Source: Mobula hypostoma
Taxonomy: Eukaryota
DNA length: 64,000 nt
NCBI RefSeq assembly: GCF_963921235.1
Contig: NC_086107.1
Location: forward strand, 114,144,001-114,208,000
Reading direction: 5' to 3'
Shown here one piece after another: positions 4,393-49,789 of this stretch (within the stretch, counting starts at the first letter, position 1; every line of letters begins with the position of its first letter). The position numbers and the translations under genes were made by a program. Under the pieces are notes generated by a model. The model ran no database searches. It saw only the letters and a program-made list of their open reading frames with translations, and was not told where the DNA came from.

Positions 4393-4395
<3 letters not shown>

Positions 4396-13250: not shown

Positions 13251-13348
13251 TTACCATTCCATCCATTTTATAAAATGCTGCTTGAAACCAACAACTCTTA
13301 GATCCAACACCTCATCTTCCCCATGTTCCCACCTTTCTCTCCTTTCCA

Positions 13349-24699: not shown

Positions 24700-26520
24700 A
24701 TCCCAAGACCATAAGACACAGGAGCAGAATTAGGCCATTCCACCCATCGAGTCCATTCCACCCATCGAGTCCACTCCACCATTCCATCATGGCTGATCCC
24801 GGATCCCACTCCATCCCATAACACCTGCCTTCTCGCCCTATCCTTTGATACCCTGACCGACCAGGAAACAATCAATTTCACCCGTAGACTTGGCCTCCAC
24901 TGCAGTCTGTGGCAGAGTATTCCACAAGTTCACTACTCTCTGGCTAAGAAAGTTCCTCCTTGCCTCAGTTCTAAAAGGTCACCCCTCAATTTTGAGGCTG
25001 CGTGCCCTCTAGTTCTGGATACCCCCACCATAGGAAACATCCTCTCCACATCCACCCTATCTTGTCCTTTCAACATTTGGTAGGTTTCAATGAGATCCCC
25101 CCACATTCTTCTAAATTCCAGTGAGTACAGGCCCGAAGCTGCCAAACACTCCTCATATGTTAATCCCTTAATTCCCGGAATCGTCCTCATGAACCTCCTC
25201 TCGACCGTCTCCAATGACAACACATTCTTTCTGAGCACAAAATACTCTGCAGATGCTGGGGTCAAAGCAACACTCACAACACGCTGGAGGAACTCAGCAG
25301 GTCGGGCAGTATCCGTGGAAATGATATTACATTCTTTCTGAGATATGGGGTCCAAAACTGTTGACAATACTCGAAGTGCAACCAGCATTATCTCTTCACT
25401 TTTATATTCTATTCCCCTTGAAATAAATGGCAACATTGCAGTTGCCTTCTTTACCACAGACTCAAACTGTAAATTAACCTTCTGGGGGTCTTGCACGAGG
25501 ACTCCTAAGTCACTCTGTACCTCTGATGTTTGAACCTTCTCCCCTTTTATATAATAGTTCGCACTCTTGTTCCTTTTATCAAAATGCATTATCGCAACAT
25601 TTCCCAACATTGTATTCCATCTGTCACGTTTTTGCCCATTCTTCCAAATTGACTAGGACCTGCTGCAATTACATTGCTCCTCAGCACTACCTACCCCTCC
25701 ACCTATCTTCATATCATCCACAAACTTGACCACAAAGCCATCAATTCCATTACCTAAACCATTGACAAATAATGTGAAAAGTAACAGTCCCAATACTGAT
25801 CCCTGAGGAACACCACTAGTCACTGGCAGCCAAACAGAAAAGGCCCCTTTTATTCCCACTCACTGCTTCCTGCCTGTCAGCCATTCCTCAATGCATGCCA
25901 GTATCTTTCCTGTAACGCCACAGGATGATATCTTGTTAAGCAGCCCCATGTGTGGCACCTAGTCAAAAGGCCTTCTGAAAATCCAAGTCAATGACATCCA
26001 CTATCTCTCTTTTGTCCACCCTGCTTGTTACTTCCTCGAAGAACTCTAAGAGATTTGTCAGGAAAGATTTCCCTTCACAGAAACCATGCTGACTTTAACT
26101 TATTTTGTCATTACCTCCAAGTCCCCCAAAACCTCGTCCTTAATAATAGATTTAATAATAATAATAGCCCTTAATAATAACAGCCCTCATAGTTCATGTT
26201 TTCCCTTCTTACAACATTTTTATTTGCCTTTTATTGGATTTTAAAAGCTTCACAATCATCCAACTTCCCACTCATTCAAAAGGACAGGCAGGTAGGCAGA
26301 GTGGGTGTGTGGCCCTGTTGGTAAATAAAGAAATCAAATCCTTGGAAAGCGGTGACATAGAATTGGAAGGTGTAGAATCCTTATGGGCAGAGTTAAGAAA
26401 CTGCGAGGGTTAAAAGAACCTGATGGGAATTATATACAGGCCTCTGAACAATAGCCAGGACATGAGCGTCAAGTTGTAGCAGGAGATAGTAAGGGTATGT
26501 CAAAAAAGTAATGCTATTGA
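24700..26520 (-). mobile_element. Degraded CR1 (mirror ~35610-35860 and ~37477-38850)
   Basis: ORFs 24933..25610 and 25653..25859 ([18 protein letters not shown]). Confidence 0.85.
25236..25328. mobile_element. 93-bp Penelope-type short insertion with 14-bp TSD, left arm only
   Basis: ACATTCTTTCTGAG at 25222-25235 and 25329-25342; empty site near 38330-38345. Confidence 0.8.
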
Positions 26521-26529
26521 ACTGAAAAT

Positions 26530-27460
26530 AAACGTGGACTAAGGTGTTAACTGTCCTGTGCTATCACCCGCGGTATCATCAGTTGATTGCACTTCTCCTA
26601 GGAAACGCTGTCTCATTCTGCCCTGCAGAGCTGAAGTACGGTTAGAATGATAATAAAGTTTTTTGAATCTTGAATCTTGAATCTTGAATCTGCCACCCGT
26701 CTTCAGGAGTTTCAGCCTGCTTATGATCAAGACTCCCTCGAGGTGGTGGGCCAGCAGTGCTAAAGCACCACCTCCCACTGATGAGCTTAAAAACTTGGCA
26801 TCTGCCTCTATCAGAGTTGTTGGTCACTTCCCTCCAACAGATAGTCTACTCTTCAGGTGTCTATGCAACTGCTGAAGGGTTTGCAAAAGCTGGATACACT
26901 GTCCGACTAACTGCCCCTCTGGACATACTTGGTCACACCGATGCTGATCCTGTCTCTGCTGTCTCTGCTGCCTCAGCTACAGCCCTGCTGGTTGATGCTA
27001 ACTTTATTCAACAATGCTCCCGGAGATCAGCAAGCCCTGGTTTGTCACCCTCACTTGCTACCTTCCACCTCTGTCTCAACGATCTAAGCTCTCTCCTCAA
27101 CCTACTAATCTCCTTCTGGTGCCTGCTTGGTTACTGTGTAGGCTTTGCTTTCTTCAGCTCAACCAAGCCAGACTTGTACTTTCCAACATCGTAAATCATA
27201 TCGCCCATCACTTCCAACTGTCTCCTCGATGTTCCCCTGAGAGTGTTCTCCAACATCATACTGATATCCTCATCAAACACACACCAAGCCTTCTCATCTG
27301 CCATTGCTGTCCACTTGACCTTCCTCTTCTTCTCTACCTCCTCACCACCGCCATCATACGAAGGATCTGCCTGGGTACTGTGGTCTGAAACCTGACCTGG
27401 ATTATCTCTTGTCTGACCTGGAGTGTGATGACTCTCTCCAGAGCGAATCGCTGCGGCTTG
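26530..27460 (-). mobile_element. HERO/R2-superfamily non-LTR retrotransposon remnant, internally deleted (mirror ~34780-35610 +)
   Basis: ORF 27131..27481 (KRKVKWTAMADEKAWCVFDEDI..LENTLRG) resembles the pre-RT region of HERO-clade ORFs; family call from recall. Confidence 0.6.
26588..26689 (+). mobile_element. ~100-bp LINE 3' end with AATAAA and (TTGAATC)n tail, left arm only
   Basis: The mirror site near 35550 reads AGTTGAT|CTGCCACC with no insert. Confidence 0.75.
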
Positions 27461-27464
27461 TGAA

Positions 27465-29900
27465 ATGATGGGGGATTTCAATATGCAAGTAAATTGTGAA
27501 AATTCAGTTGGTGCTGGATCCCAAGAGAGGGAATCTGTAGAAATCCTATGAGATGGTTTTTAGAGCAGCTTGTGCTTGAACCTACTAGGAGAATGACAAC
27601 TCTGGATTGAGTGTTATATGATGACCCAGATTTAATTAGGGAGTTTAAGGTAAAGGAACCTTTAGAAGTCAGTGATCATTATATAACAGAATTCACTCTG
27701 CACTTTGAGAAGGAGAAGCTAAATTCTGATGTATCAGTATTACGGTGTAAAGGGAATTTCAGAGGTATCAGCAAGGAACTGACCGAAGTTGATTGGAAGG
27801 GGACACGAGCAGAGATGTTGGCCGAACAGCGATGGTTGGAATTTCTAGGGGAAATTCAGAAGGCTCAGGAAAGATTCATCCTAAAGAAGAAGAAGTATTC
27901 TAAAGGGAAGATGAGGCAAGCATGACTGAGAAGTAAAGCCAAAAACAGCATAAAAGCAAAAGAGGGGGCATATAATATAGTAAAAATTAGTGGAAAAGTA
28001 GAGGATTGGGAAGCTTTTAAAAACCAACAGAAGGCTACTAAAGAAGCCAAAAAGAGAGAAAAGATTAAATATGGGGGCAAGCTAATAATATAAGAGAAGT
28101 TACAATTTTTTTTCGGAGATATAAATTGTAGAAGACAGATGAATGTGGATATTGGATCGCTGCAGAGGTAGTAACAGGGACAAAGAAATGGTGGATGAAC
28201 TGAATAAGTATTTTGCATCAATCTTCATTGTGGAACAGACCAGCTAAATGCCAGAAATGGAGTGTGAGGGGACAGAAGTGAATGTAGTTACTATTACTAA
28301 GGAAAAGGTACTTGGAAAGCTAAAATGTCTGAAGGTAGATAAGTCACCCGAACCATCTGGACTACACCCAAGGTCCTGAGAGAGGTAGCTGAAAAGATTT
28401 TGGAGGCATTAATAATGATCTTTCAAGAATCACTAGATTCTGGAATGGTTCTGGATTACGGGAAAGTTGCAAATGTCACTCCAGTCTTTAAAAAGAGAGG
28501 GTGGCAGAAGAAAGGAAAAAGGAGGCAGTTAGTCTGAATTCAGTGGTTGGAAAGATGTTGAAGTCAATTATTAAGGACGAGATTTTGGTGTACTTGGTGG
28601 CACATGATAAAATAGGTGAAAGTCAGCATGGTGTCTTTAAGGGGAAATCTTGCCTGACAAATCTGTTGGAATTTGAGGAAATAACAGGCAGGTTAGACAA
28701 AGAAAAATTAGTGGATGTGGTGTACATTGATTTTCACAAGGCCTTTGACAACGTACTGCACATGAAGTTGCTTAACGAGATAAGAGCCCGTAGTACTAGC
28801 ATGGATGGAAGATTGGCTGACTGGCAGGGGACAAATAGTGGGGATAAAGAGAACCTTTTCTGGTTGGCTGCTGAATTGATCAGTGTTGGGACTGCTTCTT
28901 TTCAGGTTACTTGTCAACAATTTGGATGATGGAATTTGAAAGACAGGTACCGAAGGTGATGAATGTCTGCATACGGACTTTAAAAAGAGCCATCAAAATG
29001 GTCACAGAGACTGCTGAGCAAGCCTCCAGGTGTCTATGGATCAAGAGGTAAGATCCGTGGACCAGTGCCACTGGGACACAAGCCAGGTCTGATCACCCCT
29101 GTCTGGGTCACCTGGGCAGGGGTGTCTGATGTTGAAAGACCCAACACAAATGATAACCCCAGATTACATCACTGTTGATAGGTCCCAGCACATCCCAGGA
29201 TGTATCTCAGTGTCAAACAGCTTGGATGAATACACAAAGAAGTGAGAGATGGAATATAACGTAGGGAAGTGCGTGGTCATTCACTTTGGCATAAGGAATA
29301 AAGGCAAAATGGAGAGAAAATTCCAAACTCAGAATTGCAAAGGAACTCGGGAGTCGTCGTGTAGGGTTCCCTAAAGGTTAACTTGCAGGTTGAGTCAGTG
29401 GTGAGGAAGGCAAATGCAATGTTAGCATTCATTTTGAGTGGACTGGAATATAAAAGCAAGGATGTAATGTTGAGGCTTTATAAGGCATTGGTCAGACCAC
29501 ACTTGGAATACTGTGAGCAGTTTCAGCCCCCATATCTAAGAATACATTTGCTGGCATTGGAGAGGGTCCAGAGGAGGTTCGTGAGAATGATCTCAGAAAT
29601 GAAAGGGTTAACAGATGAGGAGCATTTTGTAGATCTGAGCCTGTACTTGCTGGAGTTTAGAAGAATGAGGGGGGATCTCTTTGAAGTCTATCAAATATTA
29701 AAAGGTTTAGAGAGAATGGGTGTGTTTCCTACTGCGGGAACGTCTGGACCAGAGGGCACAGCCTCAGAATTGAGGGATGTCCATTTACAACAGAGATGAG
29801 GAGAAATTTCTTTAGCCAGAAGGTGCCGAATCTGTGGAATTCATTGCCGCTCACAGCAACGGGAGCCAGTTTATTGGGTGTATTTAAGATGGAGGTTGAT
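27465..29900 (+). mobile_element. Degraded CR1 (mirror ~32340-34775 -)
   Basis: ORFs 27611..27925, 28501..28929 and 29383..29799 with endonuclease, linker and RT motifs. Confidence 0.88.
28975..29210 (+). mobile_element. HERO-like 3' end nested in CR1 (mirror ~33030-33265)
   Basis: Translates KRAIKMVTETAEQASRCLWIKR*DPW; 3' UTR similar to 41158-41458. Confidence 0.6.
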
Positions 29901-29934
29901 ACGATGAGTGTGGTTGTGATCTTTTGCACATCTC

Positions 29935-29939
<5 letters not shown>

Positions 29940-29985
<46 letters not shown>

Positions 29986-30687
29986 GTCTGTCTGTCCGTC
30001 TGTCTGTGTATTTGAACATCTACACACATTTCTCTGCCAGTGTTTGAGTGTGTACACCCAGGTCTCTCTGGAGCTCTCAATCTGAGTGACTGTGAACATT
30101 TTGGGTCCTTATGCATCCTTATGCAAATTATATTTCAATGTTCAATTCAAAGAACATTCTAGAGAAGAGATGTGCTCCTGGTACCAACAACAGTGTTAGA
30201 CCACAGAGAGTGAGCGATGGAGATTGTGATGAGATATCACACTTGCCTGGACTCTGCACAGACTGGGTTCTCGTATCACAACACTCAAAGTATCACACAT
30301 CAGTCTCCTGGCTGAAAGATCAGAAAACTCTTCATGAAAGCAATCTCCACATCAAACCCCTTGTACAGAGGTTTATCCTCAGTAACCAAACCTTTTTAGG
30401 CGGGGCTTCACATCGGAAGATACCCCGATTAACGACGGGAACTCTCATTAACAGAGACCCCATTTAAAGAGACGCCTCCCCACATTAAGAATCCCAATGA
30501 AAGAAGACTTTGCTCTATCCAGAACTCCTACAGAATCCATCTCTCCCCATCCAGAAACTGTGAGCCTGTTTTAAAGATGAAAGGCCTCCGCACGAGACAC
30601 CAAATTTAAAGCTGAAGCCCTTTGAAAATGAAAAGTGACAGAGAAATCCCAACAGTGACTGGCAGCAATTAGACTACCAAACATTCA
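29940..30687 (-). repeat. ~700-bp minisatellite-associated module, copy 2, with (TG)n
   Basis: Reverse complement of 3683-4392 and of 31569-32306. Confidence 0.92.
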
Positions 30688-30895
30688 CCAGTGTCTCTCA
30701 GTTTCTTTCTCAGGGACAGATCTGTACACTGACCGGTGTCTCTCAGGGGGAGATCTGTACACTGACCGGTGTCTCTCAGTCCCTCTCTCTCAGGGGGAGA
30801 TCTGTACACTGACCGGTGTCTCTCAGTCCTTCTCTCTCAGGGGTGATCTGTACACTGACCGGTGTCTCTCAGTCCCTCTCTCTCAGGGGGAGACC
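30688..30895 (-). repeat. 47-bp minisatellite array B (~4 units, inverted)
   Basis: TGTCTCTCAGTCCCTCTCTCTCAGGGGGAGATCTGTACACTGACCGG units. Confidence 0.95.
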
Positions 30896-31144
30896 TGTGC
30901 CCTCACTGCTGTCTATGTTACTCTGCAGTGGGCTATTTTGATCTTTCTGTGCCCTGGTTATTGTTGTGGCCAGGGCTGTTTCGCCCCACACTCTCTCCTC
31001 TCCCCTCTTGCTCGTTTTTGTTGATTTATAACTTTTCTGGTGTCACGCTGTAGTTTTTGTGACTTCAGACCTGCCTCTGAATTATCGCACCCTCAGCACT
31101 GACACTGATGCTGGTAGAGTTTAGTTTGAGGCTGTGCAAATAAC

Positions 31145-31224
31145 TTGTTTTATTTTGAATTTTGTTTTTAAGTCAACCGTTGACTACAAGCTGGTTCTGG
31201 GCCCAGGTCACAGGCTTCGGCTGT
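31145..31224. other. 80-bp spacer at the palindrome centre
   Basis: Lies between GGCTGTGCAAATAAC (ends 31144) and GTTATTTGCACAGCC (starts 31225); contains AGTCAAC-C-GTTGACT at 31171-31185. Confidence 0.93.
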
Positions 31225-31480
31225 GTTATTTGCACAGCCTCAAACTAATCTCTACCAGCATCAGCGGCAGTGCTGAGGGGCGCGATAATTCAGAGGCAGT
31301 GGTTAGCAGGTCTGAAGTCACAAAAACTACAGCGTGACACCGGAAAAGTTATAAATAAACAAAAACGAGCAAAAGGGGAGAGGAGAGAGTGTGAGGCGAA
31401 ACAGCCGTGGCCACAACACTAACCAGGGCACAGAAAAATCAAAATAGCCCACTGCAGAGTAACATAGACAGCAGTGAGGG

Positions 31481-31568
31481 CACAGGTCTGCCCATGAGGC
31501 AGAGAGGGACTGAGAGACACGGGTCAGTGTACAGATCTGTCCCTGAGGGAGAAACTGAGAGACACCGG
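31481..31568 (+). repeat. 47-bp minisatellite array C (~2 degenerate units)
   Basis: AGAGAGGGACTGAGAGACACGGGTCAGTGTACAGATCT.. Confidence 0.9.
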
Positions 31569-32262
31569 TGAACGTTTGGTAGTCTAAGTGCTGCCAGTCA
31601 CCACTGGGATTTCTCTGTCACTTCTCATTTTCAAAGGGCTTCTGCTTTAAATTTGGTGTCTTGTGGGGAGGCCTTTCATCTTTAAGACAGGCTAACAGTT
31701 TCTGGATGGGGAGAGATGGATTTTGTAGGAGTTCCGGATAACACAATGTCTTCTTTCATTGGGATTCTTAATGTGGGAGGCGTCTCTTTAAATGGGGTCT
31801 CTGTTAATGAGAGTTCTCATCTTTAATCGGGATATCTTCTGATGTGAAGCCGTGCTTAAAAAGGGTTTGTTACCGAGGTTAAACCTCTGTACAAGGGGTT
31901 TGATGTGGAGATTGCTTCCATGAAGAGTTTTCTGATCTTTCAGCCAGGACACTGATATGTGATACTTTGAGTGTTGTGATACAAGAACCCAGTCTGTACA
32001 GAGTCCAGGCAAGTGTGATATCTCATCACAATCTCCATCGCTCACTCTCTGTGGTCTAACACTGTTCTTGCTACCAGGAGCACATCTCTTCTCTAGAATG
32101 TTCTTTGAATTGAACATTAAAATATAATTTTCATAAGGACGCATAAGGACCCAAAATGTACACGGTCACTCAGATTGAGAGCTCCAGAGAGACCTGGGTG
32201 TACACACTCAAACACTGGCAGAGAAATGTGTGTAGATGTTCAAACAGACAGACAGACAGACA

Positions 32263-32306
<44 letters not shown>
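31569..32306 (+). repeat. ~700-bp minisatellite-associated module, copy 3, ending in (CAGA)n(CA)n
   Basis: Direct homolog of 3683-4392. Confidence 0.92.
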
Positions 32307-32310
<4 letters not shown>

Positions 32311-35300
32311 CAGAGATGTGCAAAAGATCACAACCATACTCATCGTATCAACCTCCATCTTAAATACACCCAATAAACTGGCTCCCGTAGCTGTCAGCGG
32401 CAATGAATTCCACAGATTCGGCACCTTCTGGCTAAAGAAATTTCTCCTCATCTCTGTTGTAAATGGACATCCCTCAATTCAGAGGCTGTGCCCTCTGGTC
32501 CAGACTTTCACACAATAGGAAACACGCCCATTCTATCTAAACCTTTTAATATTTGATAGGCTTCAAAGAGATTCCCCCTCATTCTTCTAAACTCCAGCAA
32601 GTACAGGCTCAGATCTACAAAATGCTACTCATCTGTTTCATTTCTGAGATCATTCTCACGAACCTCCTCTGGACCCTCTCCAATGCCAGCAAATGTATTC
32701 TTAGATATGGGGGCTGAAACTGCTCACAGTATTCCAAGTGTGGTCTGACCAATGCCTTATAAAGCCTCAACATTACATCCTTGCTTTTATATTCCAGTCC
32801 ACTCAAAATGAATGCTAACATTGCATTTGCCTTCCTCACCACTGACTCAACCTGCAAGTTAACCTTTAGGGAACCCTACACGACGACTCCCGAGTTCCTT
32901 TGCAATTCTGAGTTTGGAATTTTCTCTCCATTTTGCCTTTATTCCTTATGCCAAAGTAAATGACCACGCACTTCCCTACGTTATATTCCATCTCTCACTT
33001 CTTTGTGTATTCATCCAAGCTGTTTGACACTGAGATACATCCTGGGATGTGCTGGGACCTATCAACAGTGATGTAATCTGGGGTTATCATTTGTGTTGGG
33101 TCTTTCAACATCAGACACCCCTGCCCAGGTGACCCAGACAGGGGTGATCAGACCTGGCTTGTGTCCCAGTGGCACTGGTCCACGGATCTTACCTCTTGAT
33201 CCATAGACACCTGGAGGCTTGCTCAGCAGTCTCTGTGAGCGTTTTGATGGCTCTTTTTAAAGTCCGTATGCAGACATTCATCACCTTTGGTACCTGTCTT
33301 TCAAATTCCATCATCCAAATTGTTGGCAAGTAACCTGAAAAGAAGCAGTCCCAACACTGATCAATTCAGCAGCCAACCAGAAAAGGTTCTCTTTATCCCC
33401 ACTATTTGTCCCCTGCCAGTCAGCCAATCTTCCATCCATGCTAGTACTACGGGCTCTTATCTCGTTAAGCAACTTCATGTGCAGTACGTTGTCAAAGGCC
33501 TTGTGAAAATCAATGTACACCACATCCACTAATTTTTCTTTGTCTAACCTGCCTGTTATTTCCTCAAATTCCAACAGATTTGTCAGGCAAGATTTCCCCT
33601 TAAAGACACCATGCTGACTTTCACCTATTTTATCATGTGCCACCAAGTACACCAAAATCTCGTCCTTAATAATTGACTTCAACATCTTTCCAACCACTGA
33701 ATTCAGACTAACTGCCTCCTTTTTCCTTTCTTCTGCCACCCTCTCTTTTTAAAGACTGGAGTGACATTTGCAACTTTCCCGTAATCCAGAACCATTCCAG
33801 AATCTAGTGATTCTTGAAAGATCATTATTAATGCCTCCAAAATCTTTTCAGCTACCTCTCTCAGGACCTTGGGTGTAGTCCAGATGGTTCGGGTGACTTA
33901 TCTACCTTCAGACATTTTAGCTTTCCAAGTACCTTTTCCTTAGTAATAGTAACTACATTCACTTCTGTCCCCTCACACTCCATTTCTGGCATTTAGCTGG
34001 TCTGTTCCACAATGAAGATTGATGCAAAATACTTATTCAGTTCATCCACCATTTCTTTGTCCCTGTTACTACCTCTGCAGCGATCCAATATCCACATTCA
34101 TCTGTCTTCTACAATTTATATCTCCGAAAAAAAATTGTAACTTCTCTTATATTATTAGCTTGCCCCCATATTTAATCTTTTCTCTCTTTTTGGCTTCTTT
34201 AGTAGCCTTCTGTTGGTTTTTAAAAGCTTCCCAATCCTCTACTTTTCCACTAATTTTTACTATATTATATGCCCCCTCTTTTGCTTTTATGCTGTTTTTG
34301 GCTTTACTTCTCAGTCATGCTTGCCTCATCTTCCCTTTAGAATACTTCTTCTTCTTTAGGATGAATCTTTCCTGAGCCTTCTGAATTTCCCCTAGAAATT
34401 CCAACCATCGCTGTTCGGCCAACATCTCTGCTCGTGTCCCCTTCCAATCAACTTCGGTCAGTTCCTTGCTGATACCTCTGAAATTCCCTTTACACCGTAA
34501 TACTGATACATCAGAATTTAGCTTCTCCTTCTCAAAGTGCAGAGTGAATTCTGTTATATAATGATCACTGACTTCTAAAGGTTCCTTTACCTTAAACTCC
34601 CTAATTAAATCTGGGTCATCATATAACACTCAATCCAGAGTTGTCATTCTCCTAGTAGGTTCAAGCACAAGCTGCTCTAAAAACCATCTCATAGGATTTC
34701 TACAGATTCCCTCTCTTGGGATCCAGCACCAACTGAATTTTCACAATTTACTTGCATATTGAAATCCCCCATCATTTCACAAGCCGCAGCGATTCGCTCT
34801 GGAGAGAGTCATCACACTCCAGGTCAGACAAGAGATAATCCAGGTCAGGTTTCAGACCACAGTACCCAGGCAGATCCTTCGTATGATGGCGGTGGTGAGG
34901 AGGTAGAGAAGAAGAGGAAGGTCAAGTGGACAGCAATGGCAGATGAGAAGGCTTGGTGTGTGTTTGATGAGGATATCAGTATGATGTTGGAGAACACTCT
35001 CAGGGGAACATCGAGGAGACAGTTGGAAGTGATGGGCGATATGATTTACGATGTTGGAAAGTACAAGTCTGGCTTGGTTGAGCTGAAGAAAGCAAAGCCT
35101 ACACAGTAACCAAGCAGGCACCAGAAGGAGATTAGTAGGTTGAGGAGAGAGCTTAGATCGTTGAGACAGAGGTGGAAGGTAGCAAGTGAGGGTGACAAAC
35201 CAGGGCTTGCTGATCTCCGGGAGCATTGTTGAATAAAGTTAGCATCAACCAGCAGGGCTGTAGCTGAGGCAGCAGAGACAGCAGAGACAGGATCAGCATC

Positions 35301-36596
35301 GGTGTGACCAAGTATGTCCAGAGGGGCAGTTAGTCGGACAGTGTATCCAGCTTTTGCAAACCCTTCAGCAGTTGCATAGACACCTGAAGAGTAGACTATC
35401 TGTTGGAGGGAAGTGACCAACAACTCTGATAGAAGCAGATGCCAAGTTTTTAAGCTCACCAGTGGGAGGTGGTGCTTTAGCACTGCTGGCCCACGACCTC
35501 GAGAGAGTCTTGATTATAAGCGGGCCGAAACTCCTAAAGACAGGTGGCAGATCAACTGATGATACCATGGGTGATAGCACAGGACAGTCAACACCTTAGT
35601 CCATGTGTATTTTCAATTCAATAGCATTACTTTTTTGACATACCTTTACTATCTCCTGCTACAACTTGACGCTCATGTCCTGTCTATTGTTCAGAGGCCT
35701 GTATATAATTCCCATCAGGTTCTTTTTACCCTTGCAGTTTCTTACCTCTGCCCATGAGGATTCTACACCTTCCAATTCCATGTCACTGCTTTCCAAGCAT
35801 TTGATTTCATTTTTTACCAACAGGGTCACCCACTCACTCTGCCTACCTGCCTGTCCTGTTGATACAAGGTGTATCCTTGGATGTTAAGCTCCCAACGATG
35901 ATTTTCTTTTAGCCACAACTCAGAGATACCTAAAACATCATACTTGCCAATCTCTAACTGCACTACAATATCATCTACTTTATTCTGACAATTGCGTGCA
36001 TTCAAATATCACACTTTCAGTCCTGTATTCCTTACCTTTTTTGATTTTTTCCCCCTGTTGCACTTTAACTCATCCAACTGACTGCAATTTTCCCCCTATC
36101 ACCTTCTTGTCCTTCCTCGCAGTCTCCCTACACACTGCATCTAATTGTATAGCAACTGCCTCATTCTCACACTTTTCACTTTGGTTCCCATCCCCTTGCT
36201 AAATTAGTTTAATCCCACCACATCACACATCCACAAAAACAGAAGAAAACCCCAAAGAATGAGTGACTGTAAAATCTGAGAGCCCCAAAGCCCCCTCTCC
36301 CCCTCCCTCACACAAACAGTGTCAAAGAATCAACCTTCCCCCTCCACCCCATCCACTTCAGCAGGAAGTATCAGCTCCCACCACCCACCAAGCAACAGCA
36401 AAGCCTCCAAAGAGAGACCAGCAGCTAAAACTACTGTTTACCTGACATGCCACAGGCTCTCTCTCTCACTAACAAGGGGCAGAGAGGCGTCTGCCATTTC
36501 ACAGCGACAGGGGAGACTTAACAGTCACTGTTCAATTGTTACAGTCTGCTGTGTTGCTTTTAAGTCCGAGACTCTCTGAGTTGAGAATATGCAGCA

Positions 36597-37476
36597 AACC
36601 AGGTGTGAGCCATGGTGGCAGGGCCTCCGGCACTGAGTCTGACCCCGTGGTGCAGAAGGGTGGGACGGAGAAGAGGAGAGCTGTCGTCATTGGAGACTCT
36701 ATAGTCAGGGGAGCAGACAGGAGATTTTGTGGACGTGAGAAGGACACCCGCATGGTTTGTTGCCTCCCGGGTGCCAGGGTGCCAGGGTCCAGGATGTCTC
36801 TGACCGGGTGCACGACATCCTGGTATGAGAGGGAAAGCTGCCAGAAGTCGTGATACATGTTGGTACCAACGACATAGGCAGGAAGAGGGATGAGGTCCTG
36901 AAGTGTGAGTTTTGGGGACTAGGCAGAAGGCTGAAGAACAGGACCTCAAAGGTGGCGTTCTCAGGATTGCTGCCAGTGCTACGTGACAGTGATGGTAAGA
37001 ATTGGAGGAGATGGCAGTTGAATGCGTGGCTGAGGAGTTGGTGCAGGGAGCAGGGTTTTAAATTTTTGGATTATTGGGATCTCTTCTGGGGAAGGTGGGA
37101 CCTGTACAGATGGATGGGTTGCACCTGAACTCGAGGGGGAGCAATATCCTTGCAGGTAGGTTTGCTAGCATGGTTCAGGAGGGTTTAAACTAATTTGCAA
37201 GGGGGATGGGACCCAGAGCGATAGAGCAGTGAAAGAAGTGCATGGAGTAAAGCCAGATCTAACATACAGAGAGGCTTCGAGAAAAGAGAAGCAGAATAAA
37301 CGGTGTAAAGACAGTAAGGTAGAAGGGCTGAAATGTGTGTACCTCAATGCAAGAAGCATCAGGAACAAAGGTGATGAACTGAGAGCTTGGATACATACAT
37401 GGAATTATGATATAGTGGCCATTACAGAGAATTGGCTGGCACCAGGGCAGGAATGGATTCTCAATATTCCTGGATT
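36597..37476 (+). mobile_element. Internal CR1 fragment (ORF1 esterase domain to start of ORF2 endonuclease), right arm only
   Basis: VIGDSIVRG, CLPGARV, IHVGTNDIG and YLNARSIRNK motifs; highly similar to ~58435-59290 inverted. Confidence 0.88.
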
Positions 37477-40329
37477 GTAAGAAGGGAAAACATGAAATAT
37501 GAGGGCTATTATTATTGTTAAATCTATTATTAAGGATGAGGTTTCGGGGTACTTGGCGGTAATGACAAAATCAGTCAAAGTCAGCATGGTTTCTGTGAAG
37601 GGAAATCTTTCCTGAAAAATCTCTTCGAGTTCTTCGAGGAAGTAACAAGCAGGGTGGACAAAGGAGAGATGGTGGATGTCATTGACTTGGATTTTCAGAA
37701 GGCCTTTTGACTAGGTGCCACACATGAGGCTGCTTAACAAGATATCATCCTGTGGCATTACAGGAAAGATACTGGCATGCATTGAGGAATGGCTGACAGG
37801 CAGGAGGCAGTGAGTGGGACTAAAAGGGGCCTTTTCTGTTTGACTGCCAGTGACTAGTGGTGTTCCTCAGGGATCAGTATTGGGAATGCTACTTTTCACA
37901 TTATTTGTCAATGGTTTAGGTAATGGAATTGATGGCTTTGTGGTCAAGTTTGTAGATGATATGAAGATAGGTGGAGGGGTAGGTAGTGCTGAGGAGCAAT
38001 GTAATTGCAGCAGGTCCTAGTCAATTTGGAAGAATGGGCAAAAAGGTGACAGATGGAATACAATGTTGGGAAATGTTGCGATAATGAATTTTGGTAAAAG
38101 GAACAACAGTGCAAACTATTATATAAAAGGGGAGAAGGTTCAAACATCAGAGGTACAGATGAACTTGGGAGTTCTCGTGCAAGACCCCCAGAAGGTTAAT
38201 TTACAGGTTGAGGCTCTGGTAAATAACGCAAATGGTATGTTGGCATTCATTTCAAGGGGAATAGAATATAAAAGCAAAGAGATAATGCTGGTCGCACTTC
38301 GAGTATTGTCAACAGTTTTGGGCCCCATATCTCAGAAGGAATGTGTTGTCATTGGAGACAGTCGAGAGGAGGTTCACGAGGACGATTCCAGGAATTAAGG
38401 GATTAACATATGAGGAGTGTTTGGCAACTTCGGGCCTGTACTCACTGGAATTTAGAAGAATGTGGGGGGATCTCATTGAAACCTACCAAATGTTGAAAGG
38501 ACTGGATAGGGTGGATGTGGAGAGGATGTTTCCTATGGTGGGGGGTATCCAGAACTAGAGAGCACGCAGCCTCAAAATTGAGGGGTGACCTTTTAGAACT
38601 GAGGCAAGGAGGAACTTTCTTAGCCAGAGAGTAGTGAACTTGTGGAATACTCTGCCACAGACTGCAGTGGAGGCCACATCTACGGGTGAAATTGATGGTT
38701 TCCTGGTCGGTCAGGGTATCAAAGGATAGGGCGAGAAGGCAGGTGTTATGGGATGGAGTGGGATCCGGGATCAGCCATGATGGAATGGTGGAGTGAAGTC
38801 AATGGGTGAAATGGCCTAAATCTGCTCCTGTGTCTTATGGTCTTGGGATAGGTTCAAGAGGGATGTGAGGGGTAAGTTTTTACTCAGAGAGTGGTGGATG
38901 CCTGGAATGTGCTGCCTGGTATGGTGGTAGAGGCAAATACATTAGAGGCTTTTAAGAGACGTTTAGAGAGGCACATGGATGTGAGGAAAACTGGTGGATA
39001 TGGATAGTGTAGGTAGGAGGGATTCATTTTGGGGTTTGTTTCAAATTACCTTTTAGCTGGTTCAGCACAAATGCGGGCTGAATGGCCTGTTCCTGTGCTG
39101 TAGTGTTCTATGTTCCATGCTCTATGTTTAATCAGAGAGACAGAAAGAGCTGGAGAGAGATGCAGCCAGAAAGAGTGAGACAATGAGAGAGGGAAAGAGA
39201 GAGACATGAAGAGGGAGATGAAGAGAAAGAAAGAAAGAAAGACAGAGAGCGAGACTGAACGGGAGAGAGAAACAGAAAGGGAGAGTCAGAGAGAGGGACA
39301 GAAAGAAAGAGGAAGGGACAGAAAGAGACCTCACCTGTAACTAATGATTTTTTTAAAAACCTCTTCCAAGTCCCCCGTAATTTCTGCACTTGCCTCCCGC
39401 ACAGTCCGAGGGAACATCTGGCCAGGCCCTGGGGTTTTATCCACCCTCATTTGCCTCAAGACAACAAGCTCCTCCTCCTCTGTATTCTGTATGTGGTCCA
39501 TGACCCCACTAGTGTTTTGGCTCAGTTCTATAAACTCTGCATCCACCTCTTGAGTAAATACAGATGCAAAAATCCATTTAAAATCTCCCCTCTGTCTTTA
39601 TTTTGTCCTTCCATGTTGTGGTTCCATCTGTTTCTCTCTCTGGTCATTGGGCAGCCGGAGTTGGGCAATCAGTTAGAACAACATTTGTGTCAGGGTGGAT
39701 GGGAAATTGGTTGACGGTTGAGAGAGAGAGAAAGAAAGGAGACACTAGAGAATGTAGGTCAAAAACTAAATAACGGAGGAGCTGTGAGAGGGAGGGAGAG
39801 ACGCGATAAGACCGGTTCTACACAGGTGTTACACAGTCCAAACGTGGAAACATCTCAATGGATGGGCAAGTGAGTGTAGTTATCCCCCTTTGTTCAAGAG
39901 CCTGATGGTTGAGGGGAAAAGAGCATGGCCTGGGTGGTGAGAATCTATGATGATGGATGCTGCTTTTCTACGGCACTATCCTTTGAGATAGTGACACCCA
40001 GGAATTTAAACTTACTGACCCTCTCCACACCTAAACCTCCGATGATTTCTGGCTCACGGACCATTGGTTTCCCTCTCCTGAAGTCTACAGTCAGTTCCTT
40101 GGTCTTATTGACATTGCGTGAGAGGTTGTTGTTTCAACACCTGAAGGCACACACTCAGCGATTCACGAACAACTTCTTCCCCTCTACCATCAGACTTCTG
40201 AATGGACATTGAACCCATGAAAACTATCTCACTGTTTTAAAAATTATTTCTGTTTTTGCACTATTTTCAATTTAACTATTTAATATACGTATAAATATGA
40301 ATAAACTTGAAGAATAAAACTAAAATAAA

Positions 40330-40575
40330 AATAAAACCAATGACGAAGACAAAACAAAGGTCTGGCTCTGCGTAAGAACTGGAATTTGATTGTAAAGAAG
40401 GTGAGAGAGCGGAAACCTGATTGGATGAGGACTAACCAATCGGGAGGGACAGACGAGGGGGTATAAATACCATCCGACTAGACATGCCCAGGCATCATCC
40501 CTGATGAAGATGGCAGAGTTTGTCATTGAAATGTTGGTTACAGTCGATACCTGGACCCAGCTGGAAACCCAACAA
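40330..40575 (+). mobile_element. Penelope-like element 3' end / pseudo-LTR with hammerhead-like core at 40501-40540
   Basis: CTGATGA-A-GATGGCAG-AGT-TTGTCATT-GAAA-TGTTGGTTA. Confidence 0.65.
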
Positions 40576-41157
40576 CAGTTTATTCATAATATATGCCAGA
40601 AAAACATTTTTTGCATACCTACTGTAATTGATTGACTTATTTATTTTTTTCTCTATTTTATCATGTATTGTGTTGTACTGCTGTCGCTAAGTTAACAAAT
40701 TTCACTACATATGCCGGTGATATTAAACCTGATTTTGATTGTGAGAGGCGAATGTATTGATAGATTTAGTGACACAAAAGGGAGGTGGGGAGACCATGGG
40801 TATCCATGAGGCAGACAATCAGCCATGATTGTATGAATTGTTGGAGCAGAACTGAAAGGGCTGACAGTCTGCTTCCCTGTCTATTTCTGCATATTTGTAT
40901 GTTCTCAATGTAAATGATAAACCTTTGGTTCTCACTTGAAGCACTTACAATAACACAGTTTAATTTGGTTCTTACATCAGGTAAATTTGATCAACGTCAC
41001 CGGCCAGTTTCAACGTCACCCTTCTGGCAATAATTTGACATCCTGACTGATGTATCCTTTATGCATTGAGCCTTTCCCAGTGCCCAGGCTCGCAATAAAA
41101 CAGAAGTGAAAGGGACACAGAGAAAGACAAAAAAAAATTATTATCCCTCAGTATTAA

Positions 41158-41458
41158 GTTACTTAGTTCCTTAGTTAGAGCCTTCAGCATTTTGGGCATC
41201 GAGGGAGAGAGGAAGAGGAGAGCCATCCGCAGTACCACCGATGCGGTAGAGAGGGCCTCAAGATGGCTGTGGCTCAAAAGAGGGGAGCCATGGAGTCATA
41301 AGTAGCTAGCCATCTGGACACAAGCTGGGGTCTGATCAGCCCCGGCTGGGTCACCTGGAGGAGGCTGTATGATGTTGAAAGACCCGAAACACCCGATGAT
41401 TCCAGGAACATCACTAAAGATGTGACCAGAAGCATCAACAGATGTATGTACACAGCTA
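41158..41458 (+). mobile_element. HERO-like 5'-truncated insertion, right arm only
   Basis: LVRAFSILGIEGERKRRAIRSTTDAVERASRWLWLKRGEPW plus 3' UTR; empty site GTATTAA|TCAACAAG at ~21488 in the left arm. Confidence 0.75.
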
Positions 41459-43758
41459 TCAACAAGCTTTAAAACCAGGGCCTGTGTACCTTGTAACGTA
41501 GAAGATCAAGAGTAATTTTGATAGAGGTATACAAAATTATGAGGGGTATAGATAGGGTAAATGCAAGCAGGCTTTTTCCACTGAGGTTGGGTGGGACTAT
41601 AACCAGAGGTAATAGGTTAAGGGTGTAAGGTGACATATTCAAGAGCAACAAGAGGGGAAACATCTTCACTCAGGGGGTCATGAGAGTGTGGAATGAGCTG
41701 CCAGCTGAAATGGTGGATGTGAGCTCGATTTCAATGCTTAAGAGAGGTTTGGATACGTACATGGATGGTAGGGGTGCGGAGGGCGATGGTCCCGGTGCAG
41801 GTTGATGGACGAAGGCAGTTTAAATGATTTCAGCATTGACAAGATGGGCCAAAGGGCCTGTTTCTGAGCTATACTTTTCTGAGACTCTATGCCTCTAATT
41901 TATTCTGTACTCAGGACTTAGTCTGTTACTTAATTAATTCGCTCTGTAGCCACCATTCTATTCTCAAAATGTAGTTTTACTGGAATGTAAAATCCATACC
42001 AAATTCATGCTCAGTGGATGAGCTTTGACTGGTCTCCTGGTGCACAGCAGTTTTTTTGATAAATCACCCGTTATCTCAAACACCAAGTCTGTGTGGCCTT
42101 TCAGTTTGGTTGTACAGGTGGTGACAGGAATGTCAGGCCTGTATAGGAATTGGTTATGACCCAGTTGGCTGATGTGATCTGTTTGTGACTGGGGAGAGGG
42201 GAGAGTGGGGGGTGGGCAACCAGGGAAGGGGGAAAGTGATGGACAGGTAACCAGGGACGGGGGAGTGTGAGGGGGCAGGTGACAGTTGGGGTGAGGGGGT
42301 GAGTGATGAGGGGAGAGTGAGGGGCAGACGACGAGGGTGAGTGGGGGTGGGGAGAATGAGGGGTGGGCGACAGGGGAGGGAAAAAATGAGCGTGCAACTG
42401 GAGCGAGAGAGAGGGAGAGAGTGAAAAGGAGGAATGAAAAGGTGAAGAGCAGGAATGGTGTGTGTAAAGTGACCGTCTCCCATCAGGGAGGGATTCTCTC
42501 TACCATCACAGATCGCTTTTAAAGAGTAAATCTCTCCCACTCACAGACCCGTGGTAAAGACGGTGTCTCTCCCCGACGGTCTCTGTGGTGTGTGTTGTGG
42601 TGCTGATCTCTGTCCCTGCAGATTCCTGCTTCTCCAATCTCCCATGTTCCTCCCATCAAACCGCACTGGGGACAATACCCTTCCTCCCCCTCCCCCTCTC
42701 CCCCCTCCCTGTCCCACGTTCCTGTCCTCACCACCCCGGAACGCCACATCCCAGATCACCACGGTAACCATTCACACCCAAAAGCTAAATGATGCTCAGT
42801 GATGTTTATTGCAAAAACACAAGTGGTACAAAGAAGGCAAGAGGCAATCAAACAATCTCTTCTGTCTCCAAAGCAGCTCTTTGCAAAGCTTCTCGTGCAC
42901 AGGGAGGCGTACGATGTTCCTGTGATGATGCTCGTGCTCCGACACAATCCACCCGTCCTGGGACACAGGTCAGCCGGAGACTCTCCAGTTGGTCCCTGTC
43001 AGCAACCGGATTGTGGGAAATGGAGCCTATGAGTCACCTCCCGCACGGGCCAAGTGGATCTGTAAATGACGTTACGCTCAAGCCGTTAAGCTGCCTGCAG
43101 TTTGGCAAGCTGGTTGGGCACCTTCTCTCCAACACAGGTCTTTGTTCGGGCGAGGGGGGTTTCCACTGGGGTGATACAGTAGCGATATGACAAATACAGA
43201 GTGGTTGGTTCCTCAATGGCCTTCCCACCCTGTACCCTTCCCCAGCCCCCAAACACCAGTGACTGAAAGCTTGGTGCAGTCAGGCAAGCCGGGACTCCCA
43301 TTCCCACTGGGAATTCCTAGTGCCCAGAGAATCCGAGGGATTGGGAAAGTGTCAGTGTTATGTGGGGTCTCTCACTGAGAGGCTGAGCCTGGGACTGGTG
43401 GGAGTGTGGGATATTGTGACCTGGACTATTAAGGGTGATAGTGCAAAGGTCGGGAGATTGGACTGAAGACAAGGTGACCTTGGCAACAGAGGATCATGGG
43501 AATGGATGTGAGGAAGGAGTCCTGGAGAGAATTGTTCCTTGGGCCAGAGTGGGTGAGAGGGGAAAGGTCAGGGCAATGGGACTGATGAGACACAGAGGAT
43601 GATGGGTACAGGGTCATGGAGAATGGGGGGAAAATATCTGGGCAATGGGAATGATGAACAGGGGGAGAGGGAAAGAGGGGAGGGGTGGTATGATAGCAGG
43701 ACTGGGGGGATGGAAAGCAGCGTTGGGCCTGGGAGTGAGGTTGGTGAGAGGTCAAGGG

Positions 43759-45474
43759 TTAGGGGTAGATAACTTTGAGGAGGGCATTCCCTGAAGGAAG
43801 GGCGGTGGGGGAGTCAGACGAGTGGGAGGAGTGGTTGGTCCTCAGGAGCCCGGTGAACCCACGGGCTCCTGGACTCGGGGCATACTGGCGGCAATGGCGA
43901 CCCTGCAAGTGGAGGCCACAGGTGAACGACAATTGGTAGGTGACCCTGCCATACTTAAGGTGGCAGGTAAGATCAGTGACACCAGAGATCAGAGGCACCT
44001 GGCAGGTCCCCAGTTTGCTATTTCAAAAGGTACCTTCATCATAGACATCCAGGGTGAGTTTCACGGTGCTCTGAGCAACCACCACCCCCAGGTCCAGTTT
44101 GGTGTTCCATTCAGGGTTGTTGTTGTTGTTTATCACCCTGGTCCGACCTTTGGCCTTACCATAAGAGACCACCACAAAACCGTCAGTGCGGGAAAAATAT
44201 TCGCTCCAGAGACCGAAGCCTCTCTTGACAGTGACAACCAGGTGCCCCATGCCCTTCTGCTTGGCGCAGCAGTGGTGGTTCACCCAGAAACTCTCCTGAC
44301 ATTGGCAGGAACGGGGATCGGATCTGCTTCTGCTCCCAGGAGTGGGGCAGGTGGTTTTGGAGCAGTCCCGTTTCATGGCGTTGGCCAAAATGTACTCGCT
44401 GAGGTAGAGCCTCAGCTGTTCCCGGCGGTGGTCAGTGCTAGCTAGCAGGAGATGGAGAGGGGCCAGCTGGTATTTTATGATACCTGGTGAGACCTCAAGG
44501 CTCTTCAGCCATCGGGTGAAGCTGGCAGGGTCAGAGGAAAAGGGGATGTCTGTGTCACCACTGGAATGTCCTCCCACGGCTTCTGTCAGCCTCTCGTTGA
44601 AGACCTGGTGGAAGCTTTCAGCCTGGTTGAGGGAAGAAGCCTTTTTCTTACAGAAACCTGTGCCCGCTCTGCCCTTGCTTACCACCACCACCTGATAACT
44701 GGCCTCTATCCCCAGGCAGTCCTTCACCTGCTCAGGGGTGATGCCCTCCACAGCAGCTTGGCAGGTGTGAATGGCTGTCACATCCTGGAAGGAGCCGCCC
44801 ATATCGACCGAGTGAATGAAGTGAGTTCCAAAAGTCTGCACTAGTTGGCGGTAGTGGTGCCGGGCTCCCTCGTAGGAGGTGTTGGTGATCTGGTTCAGAC
44901 GGGCAGAGAACTGGGGTGCCAAGGGGGGTTGGTCCTTCAGGCGGTAGCGGTAAAGACGACAACGGAACTCCTGTTTAGCGAAGCTGTAGCGGTCTGATTT
45001 GGCCTTCTGCGTGGCAAAATTAATGAGCTTGGATTTGGAACCGATTGACTGCGAGTGCTGGGTGGGTAGATTTAGGCCAGTGCTCCAGCTGTTGTCCACA
45101 CTGGAGCCGATTGACTTTATGAGCTCAGAGAGCGAGTGGAAGAGCTGACTGGAAACAGCCCGGGGACAATTACGCAGAGGCCGCCAGTCTATTGCGGCCG
45201 GGGGAGCCGCTGCCGCCTACGCCCCATCAGTGAGTTCCTGCAGAGGGTGCAGGCCCCATCCCGACGACTCCAACTCTCCACGTTCACCACGTACGCCCCC
45301 TTGCGTGACAGTGTCACCACATCGAAACCCTCTCCAGCCAGACTGGACCCTGGTACTGGGGGCGCACCTTGGCATTCGCTGGCACTGCCCGTCTCACAGA
45401 TGGCTCCCACCCCCCCCCAGGAACAGCAGCGCCCAGAGCAAAATCCCCACTCTCTCTCCCATCCTGGGATCCAT
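43759..45474 (-). pseudogene. prf1: Perforin-1-like pseudogene, mirror of 16262-17977
   Basis: ORF pieces 45189..45410, 44023..45099 and 43759..43998; G9 instead of G8 at 45410-45418, 1-bp deletion near 45200, TGG>TGA stop at 44023-44025. Confidence 0.92.
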
Positions 45475-46346
45475 CACAGCATGGACAGGGCTCTCCTCGG
45501 CCAGTGAAGGGTGGTCGGTCTGTAATGAGAATAGAAAATGATGTTACACATGATTTACGCCCTACGTCCACACCCAACCCTTCGCAGAGCATCCTTCTGT
45601 TGGACATGAATGCATTAGACATGACGACAGCTAACTCGAATGTGTCAAAGAAATTGGAAGTAGACAAAGCAAGTGTCTTTGACTTTGCTGTGTGACATTT
45701 GGATAAGTATGTGGTGGGTAGGAAAGGCTGAGAGGGATATGGACCAAATGGAGGGTAATGTCACCGTGGACAAAACCACCAGCAGGCTGAACAGGTAATT
45801 TCCCAGCACACGTTCTGGAGTGCGAAGAGCACGGTAAGACAGCTCGATCACCCTGGTCACCCATTGCATCCCGACCCATCTCCAGTCACCTTGACTCTCG
45901 TCTCGTCACTGGATCCAGATCGACGAGGGCGAGAGAGTGAGGCTGACGACCTGCGCATCTCTCCCTCACTTCACAAACTGACGTGCAAGTCAGTGTTTCT
46001 CATCGCTCGCGATGGACACGCACACTACAGACAACTTTGGCCAAAGGACCTGTTTCTGTGCTGATTCATTCAGTGACTTTATTAACAAAAGCAGCAGACC
46101 AGATCCTGACCCAGCTGAACTCCACCGCCCATCGCCCTCCAGTCCGAACTTCGACCTTCTACCACCGCTCTCTGTTTCCCATTACTAAACCACTTTCCCC
46201 TGCACGCTGCCACAGAATCTTTCATTCCATGAACTGCAAATAAGTCTGTTTTCAAGTGATGTAAACGAATACTTCATTAATACTTGATGTATTATATGAA
46301 CAAGGTTTGTGTTTTTTTCCTTTTCTCTTGTGCATTGGGTGTAATA

Positions 46347-49300: not shown

Positions 49301-49665
49301 AAGCAACGAAATCCAGGAATATTTAGTTGCCAATCACACCCCTCCTGCAACCATGTTTCACTAATAGCTGCAACATCATATTTCCAGGTATCAATCCATG
49401 CTCTAAGCTCATCCACCTTTCTTACAATGCTCCCAGCATTAAAATAGATACATGTAAGAAACTCTCCACCTCTTACTCTCTGTTTATCCCTAATGGTGCA
49501 AACAACTTTGTTATCTTTTTCTTCCTTCTCCCCTACATCTTCGGTCTGAGTGCTCCCTTTCTCTGGCCCCTGCCTATCCTCCCTCACACACTGTCTACTA
49601 GCGTTCTCTATTTGTGAGCTAACCTCCTCTCTGCTAGTCTCTTCAATTTGATTCCCACCCCACTG
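46347..49665 (-). mobile_element. CR1 LINE covering nearly all of ORF2 (frameshifted), in the pseudogene intron, right arm only
   Basis: ORFs 49036..49689 (endonuclease), 48418..48972, 47518..48372 and 46427..47284 (RT); repeat tail near 46347-46368. Confidence 0.92.
47243..47462. mobile_element. Penelope-type fold-back insertion (94-bp hairpin) with 14-bp TSD, nested in CR1
   Basis: TTATTGTCCACAAC at 47229-47242 and 47463-47476; hairpin arms 47239-47332 and 47335-47428. Confidence 0.88.
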
Positions 49666-49789
49666 GTCTTTTAATTTTTTTTTCTTCACTTGGGTTCTTT
49701 CTTGTTTCTTGCTTCATGGCTGCCTGTGAGTAAATAAATCTCCAGTTGTGTAATTTATACTTTCTTTGATAATAATTGAACTTGGATCT

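Follow-up and report, generated by a model that had tools for sequence, protein, structure and literature searches.

Does the identity between the two arms of an inverted repeat in the devil ray Mobula hypostoma reflect a single duplication, or has sequence since been copied from arm to arm? The original prediction was of a mosaic shaped by recent arm-to-arm gene conversion. We analyzed the 64,000-nucleotide stretch that holds the repeat (the window).

A degenerate palindrome around two perforin-like genes

Self-BLAST revealed that most of the window is a degenerate palindrome of ~54 kb (6832-31144/31225-61382) surrounding a convergent perforin-1-like pair, far larger than the 26800..35440 first proposed. 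Self-BLAST and block alignment place the left arm at 6832..31144 (+ strand; ~24 kb) and the right arm at 31225..61382 (− strand; 30 kb). Between them lies a non-mirrored spacer of 80 bp (31145..31224; self-BLAST) whose fold is weak (only −9.7 kcal/mol). The left arm comprises 16 mirror blocks and ~5.7 kb of left-only sequence; the right arm carries ~11.5 kb of right-only sequence, mostly LINEs, and some arm-only insertions are flanked by short duplications. Of 18,547 aligned columns, 656 distinguish the arms (3.5%; 96.5% identity), with 403 transitions and 253 transversions. Self-BLAST also located a third central-unit copy at 3441-4393, which differs from the arms at 65/705 and 56/705 positions, compared with 45/705 between the arms.

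Identity along the arms is uneven

Arm identity is indeed a mosaic, with divergence spanning 0 to ~12%. Rather than homogeneous, 92 windows of 200 columns proved strongly overdispersed (mean 7.05 differences, variance 39.9, chi2 533, p ~1e-63). The longest identical run is 2107 bp, against a maximum of 444 in 10,000 permutations. Nine identical runs reach at least 240 bp, where 0.1 were expected and at most 2 appeared in 2000 permutations. Besides the longest, the other eight (240–500 bp) are spread over the arms. They include a 500-bp run at 21879..22378 (+; mirror 40269-40768) within a 1.4%-diverged block, runs of 447 and 310 bp in 13550..14452 (+; mirror 51719-52621), runs of 240 and 313 bp directly 3' of the perforin-like gene (18177..19043, +; mirror 42694-43559), and one of 314 bp at 9040..9353 (+; mirror 59678-59991). 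Near-identical tracts are graded, at 0, 0.2, 0.7, 0.9 and 1.4% divergence. Log-likelihoods were −2837 for a single rate, −2665 for a two-state HMM and −2628 for a three-state one; both HMMs are much the better fit but over-segment the arms, and served as a guide only. Longer unbroken blocks show lower divergence (20 segments, rho −0.58, p 0.008; minus the focal block, rho −0.53, p 0.02), a correlation that is partly circular because indels too are erased by conversion.

Five translated ORFs had been reported as letter-identical to their mirrors at a constant coordinate sum of 62240. This holds for four (27002-27388, 27131-27559, 27611-27925 and 27865-28224; 0 nucleotide differences); the fifth, 28492-28929, has a single difference, at 28914, with its translation unchanged. 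Likewise, 22121-22327 equals its mirror (40526-40320) as claimed, at a coordinate sum of 62647 and not 62240. The frequent substitutions described in 30111-31144 and 24000-26200 were recovered (60/966, 6.2%, and 91/2082, 4.4%).

The youngest tract and its borders

The 2107-bp run with 0 differences lies at 26807..28913 in the left arm (+) and, by block alignment, at 33327..35433 in the right (−). Within it, tblastn identifies remnants of decayed LINEs beside another repeat, and the frames of these LINEs carry stop codons. The five ORFs are accidental reading frames of this decayed sequence: among the four scanned, three had no Pfam match and one a partial RVT_1. Apart from the mirror, the top within-window match of the tract is 86% over 64 bp, and longer matches are at 72-78%.

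Toward the spacer, 28914-29602 holds 5/689 arm differences. Four fall in an island of 88 bp (28914..29001, +) and one in a second near-identical tract of 601 bp (29002..29602, +; mirror 32638-33238). At 28999/29001, right-arm letters occur in contigs of one related organism (B) and left-arm letters in those of another (G); since both letter pairs are present in other organisms, the pattern fits arms older than the splits. The second tract stops at an 8-bp indel within one old LINE, and its inner end, 29602, is contained in one LINE coding stretch (29308-29730) and is therefore not an insertion boundary. The outer end of the youngest tract, 119 bp inside an aligned block, is likewise independent of an insertion boundary. 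Beyond it, the outer flank (24965..26806, +) is at background divergence (77/1459 in 24965-26584) and carries a 100-bp left-only insertion (26588-26687) and a 1.6-kb right-only insertion (35863-37474). The joint 26585-26688 is present in 4/4 sequencing runs compared.

Arms resemble each other more than outgroups within the tract

We compared contigs from 4 of 23 sequencing runs (X1, X2, X5, X20), based on the records listed: 36 difference rows (of 252) and 32 pieces (of 623,468). These records are incomplete, the left version being absent at 26493 in X1. Inside the tract, contigs of the two related organisms are ~4% from the window, whereas the arms are <1% apart. Across 26807-29602, outgroup and left arm differ at 38 of 947 bases (6 pieces) and the arms at 5 (B, 15/418 against 4/418; G, 23/529 against 1/529). 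Outside, the counts are 9 and 14 in 384 bases (3 pieces; outgroup-left 6/279 for B and 3/105 for G, arms 11/279 and 3/105). The contrast between inside and outside is significant (Fisher p 5e-5) and supports recent arm-to-arm conversion tracts. Because outgroup pieces diverge from the left arm within the tract, the region mutates normally.

This main count left out 7 of 16 X5/X20 pieces as probable off-locus repeat copies: four from X20 (25003-25540; depth 8-12, 8-9% different) and three from X5 (27109-27372; 8-10% different). With all 16 kept, the contrast persists (inside, 73 vs 5 with 10 in-tract pieces; outside, 44 vs 30; p 6e-7), and the four low-depth X20 pieces reverse the outside comparison. 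Outgroup pieces could also derive from other paralogous units. The shared derived variants suggested as a further check exist but are thin: among the 10 low-depth tract sites listed, two (29232 and 29309) have a letter common to both arms where both outgroups share another, and 29309 is the less secure of the two, as a B contig ends 5 letters away.

In the best-matching sample (X1, X2), contigs carry right-arm letters in both flanks. The sequencing data contain both arms: in X1 pieces covering 13 and 7 arm-difference sites, the other letter stands at all 13 and all 7. At the five listed tract sites (28098, 28115, 28974, 28981, 29232), X1 and X2 contigs contain no second version at least 90% alike, and total depth equals that of the one contig in both runs. 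Among the pieces listed, those with zero differences span 765 of the 2107 tract bases, leaving 1342 without one. Of five known arm differences in 28799-29388, popped bubbles recovered just one; because they miss known differences, hidden divergence near 1% is possible. In X1, depth is 50-77 for tract pieces vs 24-34 for two pure right-arm pieces, but a left-version piece at 58 and inner right-version contigs at 49-56 run contrary to this, making copy number ambiguous.

Two further pieces were set aside. X1 piece 26715-26856 has 11 differences vs 6 between the arms, and X2 piece 27234-27345 has 7 differences in 112 bases of the identical run, at depth 18.5. With coverage of that repeat in the thousands, both were taken for copies of the repeat family, although the X2 piece is hard to tell strictly from a hidden paralog. 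High-depth difference rows at 26522-27425 were left out as repeat-family consensus.

The centre behaves like other unconverted sequence

Conversion had been proposed to be excluded from a diverged zone ~1 kb nearest the loop. The inner zone extends over 1.5 kb instead (29603..31144, +; mirror 31225-32637), interrupted where the arms differ in the length of a (TG)n stretch and in the copy number of a 47-bp minisatellite. Its background divergence (78/1459, longest run 85) hardly departs from that at 24965-26584 (77/1459, longest run 90), which gives no sign of exclusion. The centre is internally homogeneous (permutation p 0.51), and divergence does not change systematically with distance along the arms from it (rho 0.07, p 0.78). 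Nor are transposon blocks more alike, as had been thought: outside the tract, LINE-coding sequence differs at 173/4366 (3.96%) and other sequence at 478/11385 (4.20%). We conclude that the best explanation of the centre is simply one unconverted stretch among others.

Of 12 equal windows, the centre nonetheless has the most substitutions and the shortest longest-run. Conversion that rendered the innermost arms identical would, given the 80-bp spacer, produce a near-perfect palindrome liable to hairpin or cruciform breakage, so chromosomes might persist only if their inner 1.5 kb is diverged. We regard such survivor bias as doubtful; since the centre leads the outer flank by one substitution and 5 bases, it is not demonstrable from one locus. 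If true, divergence beside the spacer would let a 54-kb palindrome last millions of years, with perforin domains further out still shuffled by conversion meanwhile. A literature search requiring all five of its terms together found no paper relating divergence to distance from the spacer.

The perforin-like paralogs

The left perforin-1-like gene (16262..17977, +) is an intact single ORF of 571 codons in one coding exon, with MACPF and C2 domains (PF01823, E 1e-35; PF00168, E 4e-12). It matches Mobula birostris P0001 at 91% and equals P0119. Its mirror copy (43759..45474, −) is broken: its first 92 codons contain two frameshifts and its C2 part a premature stop. For residue counts it was read with X at the breaks. 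Over residues 381-540, the right C2 part is nearer to the paralog P0003 (19 differences) than to the left copy (45); C2 residues of the left type also occur in M. birostris. The nearest relative of the left gene changes along its length, from P0003 to P0002 and then P0121, and trees of the N part and the C2 part of the paralogs conflict. Judged by their sequences, the perforin paralogs are themselves mosaic.

Alternative explanations

Error correction or polishing might have overwritten one arm with reads of the other. A perfect 2.1-kb run within dead repeats invites this suspicion, only 765 of its 2107 bases are confirmed by the listed pieces, and a nanopore-based assembly is among the mobulid ones published, so polishing is not dismissible beforehand. 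Against it, neither X1 nor X2 has a second version at the five listed tract sites, whereas right-arm versions appear in both flanks, where 5-7% divergence should let reads map uniquely; graded tracts and a 403:253 ratio of transitions to transversions also resemble evolution. Judged from the assembled contigs, collapse or polishing is unlikely, and we give overwriting very little credence. An identity reached with no transfer at all, through a low mutation rate, selection or one young transposon inserted in both arms, is scarcely credible: it is contradicted by outgroups ~4% different in the same block, by the block being made up of several decayed repeats that contain stop codons, and by its inner end lying inside an element.

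The history could also be read in reverse, the arms being a young duplicate into which conversion brought the diverged patches from older paralogous units elsewhere in the perforin cluster. At least three other close perforin-like genes (P0121, P0002, P0003) located on a contig equal in length to that of the window's own protein, the right C2 part that is nearer to P0003 than to the left copy, and the third central-unit copy all offer possible donors or traces, and the left-version piece at depth 58 could signal a further copy. Yet the diverged part makes up most of the arm length, at many levels, and the 5.7 kb of left-only and 11.5 kb of right-only sequence would all need importing. The third central copy is farther from both arms than they are from each other, and non-allelic conversion would still be required. 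We consider this history improbable. The explanation we favour, with good confidence, is gene conversion between the arms at several different times.

A proposed history of the locus

In this history of arm-to-arm conversion, a perforin-like gene unit would have been duplicated as an inverted segment before the split from the sampled relatives; support for the pre-split age comes from few differences (9 vs 14). Non-allelic gene conversion would later have re-homogenized part of the arms, a break in one arm presumably being repaired from the other by fold-back or from the sister chromatid. Each event may overwrite from hundreds of bases up to a few kb, substitutions and small indels alike, and events of differing ages, probably several, would yield the divergence mosaic. 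The newest would be 26807-28913, aged at most ~3% of background given an upper 95% limit of 0.14% vs 5.3%; 29002-29602 would be either a separate tract or an earlier one. Transposon insertions specific to one arm would have split the arms into blocks, of which long unbroken ones may still convert and short ones have mostly escaped.

Relation to known systems

A review, reportedly by Fawcett and Innan, covers gene conversion between duplicated loci. Converted tracts become identical, and conversion requires a few hundred similar bases and continues until pairing is disrupted by substitutions or transposon insertions (PMC3924837). The window would represent a late stage of that process, with no difference in kind, although it is in remains of non-coding repeats that its tracts are clearest.

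Mammalian X/Y palindromes share with the ray locus inverted arms above 10 kb, multi-kb tracts (the human P6 palindrome, with a 46-kb spacer, has a mean minimum conversion tract of 2068 bp, vs 2107 bp here; PMC3723533) and converted parts closer between arms than to orthologs. Their arms are >99.8% identical throughout (human P6, PMC3723533; primate X, PMC8327919; PMC8600007); unlike palindromes that exceed 99% throughout, the ray arms are at 96.5%, with arm-specific insertions, an 80-bp spacer and immune genes. Caenorhabditis inverted gene pairs have short spacers and are maintained by conversion, one of them degenerating (PMC1803023). They too are inverted, with arms closer within than between species, but those arms are sub-kilobase, intergenic and alike up to the spacer, whereas the ray arms of ~24-30 kb are patchy (PMC1803023). 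Cartilaginous-fish perforin-1 forms birth-and-death clusters; Chiloscyllium plagiosum, for example, has 17 genes and 8 pseudogenes (PMC7574235). Single-exon genes, amplification and pseudogenes are common to both, but the available portion of that account is without palindromes, conversion or rays of the Mobula group (PMC7574235).

By title and abstract, the papers listed by a search on elasmobranch palindromes and gene conversion in genome assemblies describe no such locus. The main text of a mobulid genome preprint has 0 mentions of perforin, gene conversion or "palindrom"; its supplements could bear on them. The process is known, textbook gene conversion between duplicates, and the place is new. 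The locus adds a cartilaginous-fish case of arm-to-arm conversion at a late stage, with insertions starting to free the arms. Because devil-ray perforin-like paralogs are sequence mosaics, whole-gene identity is unfit for building their trees or estimating copy ages.

Palindrome layout and arm-to-arm identity

The DNA is vertebrate and rich in decayed LINEs. Self-BLAST delineated a palindrome of about 54 kb, composed of 16 collinear mirror blocks running from 6832/61382 to 31144/31225, whose arms are separated by an 80-bp spacer and carry two convergent perforin copies; about 5.7 kb is specific to the left arm and 11.5 kb to the right. The left arm carries a perforin-like ORF of 571 codons (16262–17977, forward strand) with MACPF and C2 domains. 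Perforin-1-like proteins of M. birostris and M. hypostoma share 91% and 90% identity, respectively, with its product, and the protein of this gene groups with them. In the right-arm copy the reading frame is disrupted twice by frameshifts and once by a stop.

In the block alignment the arms differ by 656 substitutions (403 transitions, 253 transversions) over 18,547 aligned columns (3.5%). Yet 26807–28913 matches 33327–35433 with no difference over 2107 bases, and the adjoining 28914–29602 has 5/689, four of them packed into 88 bp. Homogeneous identity, which would have spoken against the original prediction, was ruled out by windowed identity, where one uniform rate was rejected (chi2 533 over 92 windows), and by permutation, after which the longest identical run was 444 bases versus 2107 observed. 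Nine runs of at least 240 were found versus 0.1 expected, the others being dispersed over the arms (starts at 21879, 13550, 29283, 9040, 18731, 14143, 29002 and 18177). Of five ORFs originally described as letter-identical to their mirrors, four have no difference and the fifth has one; the identity of 22121–22327 to its mirror was confirmed.

Age of the identical tract

Nine of 16 outgroup pieces were retained as locus-like. Inside the tract, organism B and the left arm disagree at 15/418 bases, where the arms differ at 4, and organism G and the left arm at 23/529, where the arms differ at 1. Outside, the outgroup differences are 6/279 (B) and 3/105 (G), versus arm differences of 11 and 3. 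On these nine pieces the inside/outside contrast between outgroup and arm differences gave p = 5e-5 pooled and p = 0.017 for B alone. With all 16 pieces kept, there are 73 outgroup versus 5 arm differences inside (10 pieces) and 44 versus 30 outside (the remaining 7, by the script's split; contrast p = 6e-7), and the outside comparison ceases to favour an old duplication. Shared arm states, as anticipated, were seen at 29232 and, more weakly, at 29309, where both arms have a letter absent from both outgroups; at 28999/29001, B has the right-arm letters and G the left-arm letters. From the outgroup distances and site letters we therefore conclude that the tract mutates normally and that its identity postdates the separation of the species.

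Both arms in contig data

Contigs from 4 of 23 runs were compared over 24450–29925: X1 and X2 (a single, best-matching sample of organism A, possibly the source), X5 (B) and X20 (G). All contig evidence comes from assembled contigs in a region swamped by repeat copies, and rests on 36 of 252 difference rows and 32 of 623,468 pieces listed. In the outer flank, one X1 piece shows 13 alternative letters against 13 arm differences in its span, and another 7 against 7; among the rows listed, right-arm letters occur at 29732–29737 and 29858 in both X1 and X2; and a joint bypassing the left-only insertion (26588–26687, 100 bp; its last part, (TTGAATC)4, is the 3' terminus of a very abundant repeat) is present in 4/4 runs. 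Both arms therefore exist in the sequenced DNA.

At 28098, 28115, 28974, 28981 and 29232, total depth equals one contig in X1 and in X2, and an alternative version of 90% likeness therefore did not align there. Zero-difference pieces, among those listed, cover 765 of the 2107 bases of the identical run. Weighing against this, the comparison drops some records (the left-arm version is absent at 26493), and only 1/5 known arm differences within 28799–29388 surfaced among the rows listed. One X2 piece has 7 differences at 27234–27345, within a deeply covered repeat, and depth is mixed (50–77 in the tract, 24 and 34 for pure right-arm pieces, 58 for one left-version piece). A hidden arm divergence of 5% within the identical run is unlikely; one of 1% is possible.

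Divergence at the centre and in LINEs

In the original prediction, conversion was apparently excluded from the ~1 kb nearest the loop. The data do not bear this out: the inner zone (29603–31144; 78/1459 substitutions, longest identical run 85) is matched by an outer flank outside the tract (24965–26584; 77 substitutions, longest run 90), divergence is greater at 6832–8460 (9.2%) and in the C2 part of the perforin gene (11.5%), and along the arms it is unrelated to how far a stretch lies from the centre (rho 0.07). Among 12 equal windows the central one has the most substitutions, with a lead of only one. Outside the tract, the junk-TE blocks are no more alike than the rest, LINE-coding columns differing by 3.96% and other columns by 4.20%. 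The longer the homology runs uninterrupted, the lower the divergence (rho -0.58 across 20 segments and -0.53 when the focal block is removed), a correlation that is partly circular; the centre is split into homology segments of 393, 735 and 257 columns. Nowhere do the arms differ more than in the perforin C2 part (17403–18005 vs 43731–44333; 69/600).

Repeats and small elements

A 47-bp minisatellite occupies 1072–3682 (~55 copies), 30708–30914, 31466–31569 and 61726–62386, with one and the same apparently unique sequence after each site. Copies in the same orientation begin ~30 kb apart (1072, 31466, 61689), which may be the sign of a larger repeat unit; the copy at 3684–4393 is 8–9% different from each of the two central copies. 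A nearly intact LINE on the right arm only (55777–59400, reverse strand) encodes a GDSL-esterase-type ORF1 (PF13472) and a 740-aa endonuclease/RT frame, and its truncated sister (36598–37476, forward strand, 95.8% alike) sits in another right-only insertion. A near-perfect 190-bp hairpin within a right-only LINE (47239–47428, 96.8% self-complementary) is apparently a short fold-back inversion.

Probable gene conversion and the perforin family

The observation is real. Given the identity mosaic and the outgroup distances, gene conversion between the arms, as originally proposed, is its most likely cause: one arm would repeatedly have served as template for repair of the other, over hundreds to thousands of bases at a time. 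The newest tract has diverged by no more than about 0.14%, roughly 3% of the background level of 5.3%. The neighbouring tract on its inner side stops at an 8-bp indel within one LINE, and 119 bp separate the newest tract's own outer end from an arm-specific insertion; these ends agree with the account, in a portion of PMC3924837, that conversion persists until pairing is disrupted by substitutions or transposon insertions. The tract is also similar in size to those of human palindrome P6, for which a portion of PMC3723533 gives a mean minimum of 2068 bp.

Among close paralogs, the one nearest to the left protein shifts from P0003 (residues 1–130, 3 differences) to P0002 (131–260, 2) and P0121 (381–460, 1); two partial trees of 8 perforin proteins, excluding the broken right copy, conflict; and the C2 part of the right copy is nearer P0003. 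These patterns make third-party conversion donors possible, and the perforin family appears to be mosaic in the same way as the arms. The right copy shares many C2 residues with stingray P0004/P0123 and the left with M. birostris P0001/P0118, and the pair seems to hold two old C2 types. P0001 and P0118, with adjacent accession numbers, differ at 4/571 residues and may form a pair that is very young or has undergone conversion in that species. In the named protein P0122, residues 1–33 match a fragment of a LINE reverse transcriptase (5825–5923) at 91%, so the N-terminus of that isoform looks transposon-derived or misannotated.

As far as the source excerpts describe it, arm-to-arm conversion in mammalian X/Y palindromes and nematode inverted pairs resembles what is seen here, but this palindrome falls short of the over-99% arm identity of the mammalian ones. 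Perforin amplification with pseudogenes is already known in sharks, according to a portion of PMC7574235. No published report of this locus was found among titles and abstract openings in a collection with few subscription papers. The process is known, and the locus is a new instance, most likely of gene conversion.
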